NCBI GenBank assembly: GCA_031390755.1
Contig: JANMTS010000109.1
Coordinates: forward strand, 5,773 to 69,772
Reading direction: 5' to 3'
Origin: Holophagales bacterium
GTDB lineage: Bacteria; Acidobacteriota; Thermoanaerobaculia; Multivoradales; UBA5704
Length of the DNA stretch: 64,000 nt
The notes below the pieces were generated by a model, which was given only the letters and a program-made list of their open reading frames with translations, searched no databases and was not told the origin of the DNA. The translations under genes and the position numbers were made by a program. How positions within the stretch are numbered: position 1 is the first letter of the stretch; each line of letters begins with the position of its first letter. Of this stretch, positions 18,733-31,997 are shown in pieces.

Positions 18733-19119
18733 ATGGACGACAGGACCCAGATCGCAGAGATCGAACGACGGATCATGGCCGCCTTCGCGGCCGGCGACGC
18801 GGACGCCGTGGCCGCGCAGTACACCGAGGACGCCCTGCTGCTGCCGCCGGGCTCCCCTCCCCTCGGCGGGCGCGCGGTCATCGCCGAGACCTACCGCGCG
18901 ACGTTCGCGGACTTCACGGTGCAGCTGCGCAACGAGGTCGAGGAGACGGAGATCGCCGGAGACTGGGCCTGGGTACGCGGCCGGTTCGACCACACCACGA
19001 CCGCCAAGGCCGACGGGACTGCGACGAAGGGGTCCGGCAAGTACCTCGCGATCGCCCGGCGGGACTCCGACGGCGTCTGGCGCTTCCACCGGGACGCGTT
19101 CAATTCCGACGAGGCCTAG
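18733..19119 (+). CDS. SnoaL-like / DUF4440 (NTF2-fold) protein
   Basis: 128 aa: IAEIERRIMAAFAAGDADAVAAQYTEDALLLPPG...GKYLAIARRDSDGVWRFHRDAFN. Its TAG stop shares the CTAG tetranucleotide with the convergent NRPS stop. Confidence 0.7.
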   Translation: MDDRTQIAEIERRIMAAFAAGDADAVAAQYTEDALLLPPGSPPLGGRAVIAETYRATFADFTVQLRNEVEETEIAGDWAWVRGRFDHTTTAKADGTATKGSGKYLAIARRDSDGVWRFHRDAFNSDEA

Positions 19120-30600: not shown

Positions 30601-31997
30601 TGGGGATCCACGACAGCTTCTTCGAGCTGGGCGGCCACTCGCTCGTGGCGCCGAAGATGATCCTCCAGGTGCGGGAGGCCTTCGGCGTGGACTTCCCCCT
30701 GAGCCACCTGTTCGAGGCGCCGACCGTGGCCGGAATGGCCGCCGCCGTGGAGATCCTCCGGCAGGAGGGCGAGCTGGCTGCGGCCCCGGAAGTGGATCTC
30801 GCCGCCGAGGCCGTGCTCGCCCAGGACATCCGCGCCGAGGGCGAAGCCCCAGACCCGGAGAGGATCGCCCGCCCGCGCGAGGTCGTCCTCACGGGCGTCA
30901 CCGGCTTCCTGGGGTCGTTCCTGCTGCGCGAGCTTCTCCGCCAGACCGACGCCCGCGTTCACTGCCTGGTTCGCGCCAAGAGCTCCGAAGCGGGGCTCGA
31001 ACGCATCCGCTGCAAGCTCTCTGAGGCGGGGATCTGGAGCCACGACATGGCGGCGCGGATCGTCGCCGTGCCCGGAGATCTGGAGCTTCCGCGCTGGGGG
31101 TTGTCCGAAGAAGGGTTCGACGGCCTCGCCGGCCGCGTCGACGCGGTCTACCACTGCGGGGCCTGGGTCAACTTCACCTACCCCTACAAGGCGCTCAAGG
31201 CGGCCAACGTCACGTCCACGGAAGACGCCCTCCGGCTCGCGGGCCGGCGCCGGACCAAGCCGGTCCACTTCATCTCCTCCATCGCCGCGGTGTCGCCCGC
31301 GGGTGTCACCGGGTCCGTGGTCCTGGAGGACGCCGACTACCCCACGACCGAGGGCCTCTTCGCCGGCTACGGCCCGACGAAGTGGGTCTCGGAGCGGCAC
31401 GTCGCCGAGGCGCGGGACCGGGGCATCCCCGGCAGCATCTACCGTCCGGGCGTCCTCGCGGGCGACAGCCGCAACGGCTACGGAAATACTCAGGATCTGG
31501 TCTGGAATCTGATCAAGGGCTCGATCCAGCTCGGAGCCGCTCCGGAGCAGGACAACCTCATGGATGTGGCGCCGGTCGACTCCGTGCCCGCGGCCATCGT
31601 CCGCCTGTCCCTGTCCCCCGGTCTCCTCGGAAAGACCTTCCACTTCCCGAACCCCAAGCCCATGACCTGGAACGAGGTCTACGATGTCGCCCGCGCCTGC
31701 GGCTACCCGCTCCGGCGCCTGTCGCCCGGCCAGTGGCTGGACGAGTTGCGGACCGCCATCCGCCAGGGCGCCGACAACGCCCTGGCCCCCTTCGCGCCAC
31801 TCCTGGACGCCGCCGCGGCCCAGGAAGAGACCGGCACGGCCGAGCAGCCGAAGGATCTGATCTTCGACGACCGCAACACCAGGGCGGGGCTGGAAGGATC
31901 GGACATCGCCTGCCCGCCCCTCGACGCCAAGCTGCTCGCCCTCTGGTTCGACTCTTTTGCGCTCAGCGGCTTCCTGCCTCCGCCGCCTAGATCCTGA
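27663..31997 (+). CDS. Type I polyketide synthase module with terminal thioester reductase (KS-AT-T-R)
   Basis: 1444 aa from MNHEPEPDQPDD. KS: DPQQRVFLE, VQTACSTSLV, ETHGSGTPLGDP, KASVGHMESAAG. AT: VGYSLGEY, THAFHS. Carrier: FFELGGHSLV. Reductase: VLTGVTGFLGSFLLREL, YGPTKWVSE. Confidence 0.92.
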   Translation: MNHEPEPDQPDDPSAAPEAVAIVGMAGRFPRARNLDELWSNLRDGVDCVRDLTDDELLASGIPPAVFQQPGYVRVAAPIADPDLFDAAFFGFSPREAEVLDPQQRVFLETAWEALESAGYVSESYPGWIGVFAGIAFPTYLLHNLLSNPELMESIGGFPMLLANDRDYFATRVSYKLNLRGTSVNVQTACSTSLVAVHMACQSLLDYQCTLALAGGVRVYVPQLTGYPYAEGGIFSPDGRCRAFDAEGRGALFSEGCGVVVLKRLSEALADGDPIHAVIRGSATNNDGSNKVGYTAPSIDGQSEVIAMAQAAAGVGPDSISYVETHGSGTPLGDPIEIAALTRAFRSGTDRTGFCSLGSLKASVGHMESAAGVGGLIKTVLALKNRQIPPSLHFRTPNPRIDFDSSPFRVSTKLSDWPRRGEPRRAGVSSFGMGGTNAHVIVEEAPEREPSGAANPWQLLLLSARTPTALESATDRLADWMEAHPEAPLADVAFTLQTGRRTMPHRRALVCRSREDALAALRGRDPRRLTGSVQEIAERPVVLMFPGLGDHYVDMGLDLYQSEPAFRDALDECAELLKPVLEEDIRDVIYPRGTDAPAQQEAGASERVDLKAMLGRALSGEDEASRRLNRTRFAQPALFAVEYALARLLEEWGLRPAALVGYSLGEYVAACLAGTLSLEDALSLVAERARLIDGVEAGAMLAVPLPEDEARRTLAELDSGLSIAAINGPSLSVIAGPVPALDALERQLTGQGIACRHLSTTHAFHSGMMEPIRERMVQMARQVRLSPPGIPFLSNVTGTWITASEATDPAYWGRHLCQAVRFGPCLDELRKNPARVLLEVGPGLSLTTLALQTVGEEPAPLALPTLRPSYDRQPDSAFLLGALSRLWLAGLSPDWAEHAGRTGVRRNRLTLPTYPFERRRFWIDAPGQKTSAAEARSEAPETLTRHARPDHLRNPFAPPSNDLERGLAEIWQEILGIGEVGIHDSFFELGGHSLVAPKMILQVREAFGVDFPLSHLFEAPTVAGMAAAVEILRQEGELAAAPEVDLAAEAVLAQDIRAEGEAPDPERIARPREVVLTGVTGFLGSFLLRELLRQTDARVHCLVRAKSSEAGLERIRCKLSEAGIWSHDMAARIVAVPGDLELPRWGLSEEGFDGLAGRVDAVYHCGAWVNFTYPYKALKAANVTSTEDALRLAGRRRTKPVHFISSIAAVSPAGVTGSVVLEDADYPTTEGLFAGYGPTKWVSERHVAEARDRGIPGSIYRPGVLAGDSRNGYGNTQDLVWNLIKGSIQLGAAPEQDNLMDVAPVDSVPAAIVRLSLSPGLLGKTFHFPNPKPMTWNEVYDVARACGYPLRRLSPGQWLDELRTAIRQGADNALAPFAPLLDAAAAQEETGTAEQPKDLIFDDRNTRAGLEGSDIACPPLDAKLLALWFDSFALSGFLPPPPRS
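27720..28995 (+). other. PKS ketosynthase domain (Cys codon 28230..28232)
   Basis: VAIVGMAGRFP...TACSTS...HGSGT...VGH...GTNAHVIVEE. Confidence 0.85.
29283..30190 (+). other. PKS acyltransferase domain (Ser codon 29649..29651; malonyl-type HAFHS at 29946..29960)
   Basis: VVLMFPGLGDHY..RTRFAQPALFAVEYALA..VGYSLGEYVAACLAG..THAFHSGMM. A Tyr replaces the usual His of GHSxG. Confidence 0.85.
30549..30755 (+). other. Carrier protein domain (PCP-like; Ser codon 30639..30641)
   Basis: LAEIWQEILGIGEVGIHDSFFELGGHSLVAPKMILQVREAFGVDFPLSHLFEAPTVAGMA. Confidence 0.85.
30885..31990 (+). other. Terminal thioester reductase (TD/R) domain
   Basis: VVLTGVTGFLGSFLLRELLRQTDARVHCLVRAKS (NAD(P)-binding), AVYHCGAWVNF, YGPTKWVSE (YxxxK). 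Confidence 0.85.

Follow-up and report, generated by a model that had tools for sequence, protein, structure and literature searches.

A probable orphan hybrid NRPS-PKS gene cluster with predicted reductive release, and the terminal cassette it shares with a family of related clusters

We analysed a hybrid nonribosomal peptide synthetase-polyketide synthase (NRPS-PKS) locus in a 64,000-nucleotide stretch of contig JANMTS010000109.1 from a Holophagales bacterium (assembly GCA_031390755.1), hereafter the window, in whose coordinates positions are given. The locus consists of two divergent genes separated by exactly 127 bp (27536-27662): an NRPS on the minus strand, running from the start codon ATG at 27535 to 19116, and a PKS on the plus strand at 27663-31997, a full-length open reading frame (ORF) of 1444 aa. 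The NRPS comprises three modules of adenylation (A), carrier (T) and condensation (C) domains in the order A-T-C-A-T-C-A-T, and the PKS forms one module with a ketosynthase (KS), a malonyl-type acyltransferase (AT), a T domain resembling a peptidyl carrier protein (PCP-like) and a terminal thioester reductase (R). Taken singly, the NRPS and the minimal PKS module are standard and the reductive release domain is of the MxaA/MxcG type, and together they probably constitute an orphan hybrid biosynthetic gene cluster, one that would assemble a tripeptide, extend it by a C2 unit and release it reductively.

A frameshift, described below, divides the NRPS into two parts. Part a (25580-27535, minus strand) holds module 1, in which Pfam (AMP-binding, 8e-87; PP-binding, 3.5e-14) and the translation place A1 at about 25949-27409 and T1 at about 25661-25852; its C-terminal end is formed by the first residues of C1 (LPLSHAQR), after which the frame continues to a stop at 25523. 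Part b (19116-25577, minus strand, stop codon 19116-19118) contains C1 (about 24258-25577), A2 (about 22758-24212), T2 (about 22485-22676), C2 (about 21033-22382), A3 (about 19527-20975) and T3 (about 19239-19430), all on the minus strand and followed by a tail rich in basic residues, Gln and Met (19119-19238). In the Pfam scan, AMP-binding, AMP-binding_C and PP-binding were matched at 27535-25580, and two copies each of Condensation, AMP-binding, AMP-binding_C and PP-binding at 25577-19119. The families matched on the plus strand at 27663-31994 outline the KS (27714-28844; ketoacyl-synt N and C), the KS-AT linker (28851-29228; KS-AT linker families), the AT (29292-30278; Acyl_transf_1, 9.5e-43), the PCP-like carrier (30561-30749; PP-binding) and the R domain (30882-31976; NAD_binding_4). 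No family for a ketoreductase (KR), dehydratase (DH), enoylreductase (ER), methyltransferase (MT), epimerisation (E) or thioesterase (TE) domain was matched in the Pfam scan of the two genes. The domain order, the strands, the 127-bp spacing, the lack of these six domain types and the basic tail had been proposed by a first-pass annotation made from the letters of the window, and all were borne out by the Pfam matches and coordinates.

The modular repeat of the NRPS is visible in the DNA itself, with a period of 3.17-3.25 kb. In the T2-C2 linker, a 9-bp tandem repeat (22390-22446; 4.4 copies, 96% identity), adjoined by a degenerate array, encodes GTLGTVGTVGTVGTAGT, a slippage-prone, in-frame linker expansion. 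The promoter and terminator scan of the 127-bp intergenic region returned nothing, including no match to a sigma-70-like consensus; alignment with the closest relative, locus L001, showed partial conservation of the PKS-proximal half. Long antisense ORFs are common in the window because its GC content is about 70%. The mechanical ORF list contained a single minus-strand ORF of 4175 aa (19116-31643) spanning the NRPS and the antisense of the PKS; its N-terminal third, which is rich in Arg, Gly and Ala, was rejected as a protein, being an open antisense frame of the PKS and an artefact of the 70% GC. This artefactual ORF could mislead automatic gene callers.

Analysis of the catalytic motifs revealed that every one of them is intact in the NRPS and PKS domains. 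The three SGSTGxPKG adenylation cores lie at 26918-26944, 23742-23768 and 20541-20567, the two HHxxxDG motifs at 25188-25208 (HHIVTDG) and 21963-21983 (HHAVADG), and the three carrier serine codons at 25769-25771, 22593-22595 and 19347-19349, within the motifs GAHSL, GGHSL and GGHSL, respectively. The A domains scored 425-461 bits against TIGR01733 (cut-off 317), and all three 10-residue specificity codes end in Lys. The PKS carries TACSTS, ETHGSG and VGH, then GYSLGE and HAFHS in the AT, GGHSL in the carrier, and TGVTGFLG and YGPTK in the R domain. When the PKS was aligned with 16 KS-AT-T-R homologues (51-81% identity), Cys190, His326 and His366 of the KS, Ser663, Arg688 and HAFHS of the AT, Ser993 of the carrier, and TGxxGFLG, Tyr1236 and Lys1240 of the R domain proved invariant. 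The AT is assigned to the malonyl type by the established HAFH rule. Inspection of their N-terminal motifs by eye suggests that both C domains are LCL-type, and an all-L peptide would be expected because of this and because no epimerisation family was matched in Pfam. All the NRPS motifs counted in the first-pass annotation (three adenylation cores, two HHxxxDG motifs and three carrier serines) were thus located, and its description of the PKS, with a malonyl-type HAFHS AT, a PCP-like carrier and a terminal thioester reductase, agrees with both the motifs and the Pfam and NCBIfam matches. Degeneracy of the carrier or R domains, which it had named as a point to check, was not seen, with the motifs intact and the R domain above the TIGR01746 cut-off.

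Alignment with GrsA (MAFFT) gave the Stachelhaus codes DALWLGGVFK for A1, DAAFLGCTFK for A2 and DTENIGSIVK for A3, identical to those read by hand earlier. MxcG activates Lys, and the MxcG model scored 400 bits on A3 compared with 325 on A1 and 305 on A2. LgrA was discarded as the top PDB match for A3, its score being a sum over two A domains (144 + 158 bits), and the PDB search for specificity used the specificity-conferring stretch alone as query. The pocket regions of A1 and A2 are nearest to PA1221 (4DG8; 92 and 88 bits, respectively), and that of A3 to ApnA A1 (4D4G; 101 bits, with the runner-up at 48.8 bits). PA1221 activates L-Val (PMC11253843). Its code, read off the alignment as DALWLGGTF, differs from A1 (DALWLGGVF) at one position and from A2 (DAAFLGCTF) at three pocket positions. 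ApnA A1 is bispecific for L-Arg and L-Tyr, with Glu204 and Ser243 orienting the substrate, and the Lys-activating Pls A domain likewise uses a Glu at the base of its pocket (PMC11253843). A3 keeps Glu204 and has Asn in place of Ser243; the codes of A3 (DTENIGSIV) and ApnA A1 (DVESIGVIA) differ at four pocket positions, and ApnA A1, from the anabaenopeptin synthetase, sits in an initiation module whereas A3 lies in the module that feeds the PKS. These similarities suggest a Val-like substrate for A1, another hydrophobic aliphatic residue for A2 and an Arg/Lys-like residue, possibly Tyr, for A3. The earlier Val-like call for A1 agrees with this, all but one code position being shared with an L-Val-activating domain; the A2 and A3 codes, which had been read correctly and left unmatched, are now narrowed to PA1221-like and ApnA-A1-like, respectively.

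The R domain scored 320.9 bits against the NCBIfam model TIGR01746 (cut-off 213.35), and the T-R stretch scored 327 bits against the MxcG model. Among PDB structures, the R domain is closest to that of MxaA (4U7W; E=7.5e-92, 312 bits over the whole domain), followed by the CpkC thioester reductase (TR) domain (8V1X; E=1e-77, 265 bits). By similarity, release looks reductive, giving an aldehyde or an alcohol. MxaA performs a four-electron reduction to the alcohol. MxaA (myxalamid) and MxcG (myxochelin) share with the window PKS a PCP-like carrier (GGHSL) followed by an extended short-chain dehydrogenase/reductase-type (SDR) reductase with TGxxGxxG and YxxxK, but their T-R follows C-A whereas that of the window follows KS-AT, and the predicted substrate of the window R domain is a beta-ketoacyl thioester rather than an aminoacyl or acyl-aminoacyl thioester. 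CpkC (coelimycin, 8V1X) likewise has a reductive-release domain at the end of a PKS module. Such PKS TRs stop at the aldehyde and always occur with a partner transaminase, and many NRPS R domains continue to the alcohol (bioRxiv 10.1101/2024.10.29.620908, which reports 8V1X). The window locus differs from CpkC-type clusters in its PCP-like carrier and in an R domain that lies nearer to MxaA. The ORF scan, which covered most of the window and every probable gene up to about 12 kb from the locus, gave no aminotransferase of the kind that would partner a CpkC-type TR. On these grounds we read the release as reductive, leading to either an aldehyde or an alcohol.

Relatives of the locus were sought through the 120 best matches to the PKS and the 120 best matches to the last NRPS module, the latter drawn from proteins under about 1220 aa. 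One entry, on an NCBI contig of 86,915 bp, is 100% identical to the PKS, and about 90 of its 120 best homologues share the KS-AT-T-R architecture (48-81% identity), so the locus is not singular. These homologues come mostly from metagenome-assembled genomes (MAGs) of Thermoanaerobaculia and other Acidobacteriota, from soil and other metagenomes, and a few from Nostoc, Cyanosarcina and Chloroflexia. The host of the window locus, a high-GC bacterium, is most likely a member of the acidobacterial class Thermoanaerobaculia. No named product occurs among the two sets of 120 matches, and literature searches returned no paper on this KS-AT-T-R/NRPS cluster family or on a characterised homologue. The search for syntenic loci proposed earlier was successful, as KS-AT-T-R genes were found with NRPS genes in four relatives (L001, L082, L083 and L084). 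In the closest, L001 (Acidobacteriota MAG_Dt_02), the PKS is 81% identical and the NRPS is divergent across a 126-bp gap; in L082 the PKS is 68% identical and the divergent NRPS has 3805 aa. NRPS genes lie upstream of the PKS and in the same direction in L083 (3778 and 2815 aa) and in L084, where an NRPS of 9166 aa is accompanied by a C-A-T protein of 1116 aa. There is no conserved accessory set, because each locus has its own genes downstream of the PKS.

Comparison of the window and L001 NRPSs revealed one extra N-terminal module in L001, with the code DLFNNALTYK, which we take to be Cys-like. Residues 12-899 of the window NRPS correspond to residues 1016-1875 of L001 (69.7% identity), and its first 38 residues are homologous to a C-A linker of L001; because of this match at its N-terminus, the three-module NRPS looks derived from a longer line. 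A DLFNNALTYK module opens the NRPS in both L001 (1-5625) and L082 (1-9836) and occurs twice in L082. No heterocyclisation (Cy) motif was noticed in these relatives by a motif scan that was itself flawed, and the products of L001 and L082 may carry free thiols. Other relatives have neighbours of their own. In L084 a thiopeptide- or lanthipeptide-like set adjoins the cluster (17068-24113; Thiopep_pre, two Lant_dehydr_C and a MacB-type transporter). In the Cyanosarcina locus L085 (6511-16913), genes for 3HCDH, a free carrier protein, an acyl-CoA dehydrogenase and an HAD/FkbH-like protein, which look like a set for a methoxymalonyl-type extender unit, stand before the KS-AT-T-R gene, and genes for a Lant_dehydr_N protein and MFS_3 come after it; here the shared release module is decorated differently.

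The locus belongs to a large uncharacterised family in which a fixed cassette, consisting of an A domain with the code DTE[D/N]IGxIVK, a T domain, a basic tail and KS-AT-T-R, stands behind a variable number of NRPS modules. The module just before the PKS has the code DTE[D/N]IG[T/S]IVK in each case that could be read: the window, the last A domain of the second L083 gene and the C-A-T protein of L084. Five stand-alone C-A-T proteins lie on contigs equal in size to those of PKS homologues, and four of the five have this code, the fifth (P0144) having DTETAGTIVK; cyanobacterial versions read DAEDIGSIVK. The C-termini are rich in Lys, Arg and Gln in the nine acidobacterial or MAG C-A-T homologues that were read, P0144 included, one of which (P0143) has an end that looks frameshifted. 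The PKS proteins open with 8-20 mostly acidic residues, and we infer that the basic NRPS tail and the acidic PKS N-terminus may form a charge-complementary docking pair. In many uncultured Acidobacteria the cassette stands behind NRPSs that range from three modules to proteins totalling more than 10,000 aa (L084), from which we infer a fixed end-game, comprising the last residue, a C2 unit and reduction, behind a variable peptide.

On this basis an assembly pathway can be proposed. Module 1 would load a Val-like residue, followed by another hydrophobic, aliphatic one on module 2 and, on module 3, one that is long and polar or basic (Arg/Lys-like, possibly Tyr). Condensation by the two LCL-looking C domains would yield an all-L tripeptide whose N-terminus is free. 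The NRPS would then dock through its basic tail on the short acidic N-terminus of the PKS, the KS would take over the tripeptidyl chain, and the AT would load malonate onto the PCP-like carrier, so that one decarboxylative condensation would give a peptidyl gamma-amino-beta-ketoacyl thioester. Since KR, DH and ER domains are lacking, the beta-keto group would be kept unreduced. The MxaA/MxcG-type R domain with NAD(P)H would release a beta-keto aldehyde, or an alcohol after a second reduction, and the resulting 1,3-dicarbonyl would likely cyclise through an amide nitrogen or the side chain of residue 3, or act as an electrophile. This colinear reading of tripeptide, unreduced C2 unit and reductive release, already put forward at first pass, is supported by the conserved pairing of NRPS and KS-AT-T-R in L001, L082, L083 and L084.

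The predicted logic recalls two known types of assembly line. In epoxomicin/eponemycin-type lines, a short NRPS is followed by one terminal PKS module without a reductive loop; the PKS carries a C-methyltransferase and ends in a TE, an acyl-CoA dehydrogenase (ACAD)-like enzyme is required, and the ketone becomes the warhead. The window locus shares with them the single malonyl-derived C2 extension of a short peptide with the keto group kept, but it lacks the MT, TE and ACAD, and its release would be reductive. Leupeptin-type peptide aldehydes have the pattern hydrophobic-hydrophobic-basic-CHO. The predicted product would resemble them in its Val-like, hydrophobic and Arg/Lys-like residues and in a reductively made C-terminal electrophile, but would differ in the extra C2 ketide between the basic residue and the aldehyde, and the locus has no starter C domain for N-acylation.

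The frameshift alluded to at first pass is real in this sequence, as seen in the translation and in the DNA alignment with L001. A 1-nt deletion at about 25578-25582 (minus strand), at the T1/C1 junction, splits the gene after T1 and leaves module 1 out of frame with modules 2 and 3. In the pairwise DNA alignment, the window reads CAG-C.G-CGG-CTG-TGG where L001 reads CAG-CAC-CGG-CTC-TGG, and the orthologous NRPS of L001 is continuous through the junction. The upstream frame runs ...DLPLSHAQR and then GCGSWRGSAPCREPIAFR up to its stop, the downstream frame (R)LWFVEGLGTLPGTYSVP..., and the two together make up a canonical C-domain start. Public gene calls on the same NCBI contig (86,915 bp) list proteins of 670 and 2150 aa, the latter from a GTG at 25568. 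A Logan contig of run SRR20217208 matches the window at 100% identity over 18110-19371, and a metagenome scan with module 1 gave nothing above 53% identity. This copy of the NRPS is either mis-sequenced or recently inactivated, and the frameshift, together with the lack of one module compared with the closest relative, leaves its function in the window uncertain.

Several points weigh against the interpretation of the locus as a cluster making a tripeptide plus C2. The NRPS reading frame does not run uninterrupted through all modules; no independent assembly over the frameshift site was found in the public protein collection or the metagenome scan; and the NRPS starts inside the L001 C-A linker, without the first module of L001, which is compatible with decay. 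Furthermore, NRPS-PKS docking is deduced from charge alone, the A-domain substrates are assigned by pocket similarity only, and no phosphopantetheinyl transferase (PPTase), MbtH-like gene or dedicated exporter is adjacent to the locus. The locus could instead be a decaying remnant, with a genuine deletion, an NRPS cut short after T1 and no product, the loss of the first module having been an earlier step of erosion. We consider such decay unlikely, though a substantial possibility. The frameshift at the T1/C1 junction fits it, and the deletion lies in the context CGCGG with no long homopolymer, which is not typical of a read error; the NRPS is the only broken gene seen among the window genes that were scanned, and the assembly accordingly does not look prone to indels; and the closest relative has an extra N-terminal module, the window start codon falling in a former C-A linker. 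However, the lesion is the only one in 12.8 kb of coding sequence, the eight domains of the NRPS and the four of the PKS all keep their catalytic motifs, the PKS ORF is full-length, and a three-module line opening with an A domain is a normal architecture.

The same deletion could also be real but tolerated, with a split NRPS in which the 670-aa A1-T1 protein cooperates with the 2150-aa C-A-T-C-A-T protein from GTG 25568. This GTG stands 3 codons past the shift in the downstream frame, gene callers predict exactly these two products, and splits between T and C occur in many NRPSs, including the stand-alone C-A-T proteins of this cluster family. Yet the downstream protein would start about a dozen residues into the C domain, without the conserved LPLSxAQxRLWF, the upstream protein would finish on 18 residues read out of frame and would have no docking element, and no relative is split at T1/C1, which makes such cooperation very improbable. 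We give still less credence, close to none, to a different assembly logic, in which the R domain is a redox-inactive Dieckmann-type cyclase (R*) or the NRPS and the PKS belong to separate pathways. R* domains terminate hybrid synthetases such as fungal PKS-NRPS, and psoA appears among the distant PDB matches (E=1e-21). Against an R* domain, the whole family keeps the TGxxGFLG nucleotide-binding motif and the Tyr/Lys pair without variation, the beta-ketoacyl-aminoacyl order required for Dieckmann closure is reversed in this locus, and the nearest structures are the true reductases MxaA and CpkC TR (reductions in bioRxiv 10.1101/2024.10.29.620908). Against separate pathways, the KS has no loading partner besides the NRPS, and the NRPS-PKS linkage is kept in four relatives. 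A hybrid cluster with reductive release thus remains the reading that we prefer.

As a single locus, this cluster is a routine genome-mining find, and it is the cassette at the level of the family that is worth following. We tentatively put forward, as a speculation more likely wrong than right, that the cassette, with its ApnA-like A domain bearing Glu at the pocket base, defines an undescribed chemotype, in which a C-terminal Arg/Lys-like residue plus one ketide is reduced and closes to a cyclic guanidine, imine or pyrrolinone warhead; the gamma-amino-beta-keto aldehyde would close on the guanidine or amine of the residue itself or on an amide nitrogen. Since the related clusters share the last module and the release module, one solved product would fix the structure type for dozens of them together. 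Acidobacteria, although abundant in soil, are chemically almost unexplored, and the three-module version is of a convenient size for synthesis or heterologous expression.

The genes flanking the locus were also examined. An NTF2-fold gene (DUF4440/SgcJ-EcaC; 18733-19119, plus strand; Pfam DUF4440, 2.4e-16; TIGR02246, 48 bits, cut-off 33.95) is convergent with the NRPS, with overlapping stop codons, and is possibly part of the cluster. In L086, a 73%-identical relative, no counterpart was found beyond the NRPS stop, and its candidacy as a conserved tailoring enzyme was not supported by this absence. To its left lie dnaB (17278-18645, minus strand; TIGR00665, 528 bits) and alr (16032-17312, minus strand), and beyond alr genes for MlaE, an ABC ATPase and MlaD. 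The right flank comprises, in order, a RES-domain gene (32018-32623, minus strand; PF08808, 1.6e-13), a 139-aa ORF (32657-33076) with no match in Pfam or NCBIfam, and genes for CreD, a response regulator, a histidine kinase, an MFS_3 exporter and a TonB-dependent receptor. The RES gene lies in a stretch of lower GC (32018-33076; 63.5% against about 70%). The first-pass annotation was right about dnaB, alr, the NTF2-fold gene and RES, and its Xre partner for RES did not hold, as the ORF at 32657-33076 matches no family. Scanning the genes around the locus brought up no obvious tailoring enzyme. The earlier statement that accessory genes are lacking holds roughly, with two reservations: the NTF2-fold gene passes the SgcJ/EcaC cut-off, and the MFS_3 exporter stands behind the two-component system 6 kb downstream of the locus. 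This MFS_3 protein may be involved in export of the cluster product.

In the region 33900-40006, the CreD-like membrane protein is encoded on the minus strand, and the response regulator, the histidine kinase and MFS_3 (an EntS-like 'secretion effector') stand in a row on the plus strand. In the cyanobacterial locus L085, an MFS_3 gene also occurs 2.6 kb downstream of the KS-AT-T-R gene. No Rfam families or tRNAs were found in the window. Two long plus-strand ORFs without a Pfam match lie to the left of the locus: one at 12115-14472 (785 aa), with the weaker third-position GC (GC3) of 0.86, and one at 6730-9360 (876 aa), which is strongly coding-like with a GC3 of 0.92.

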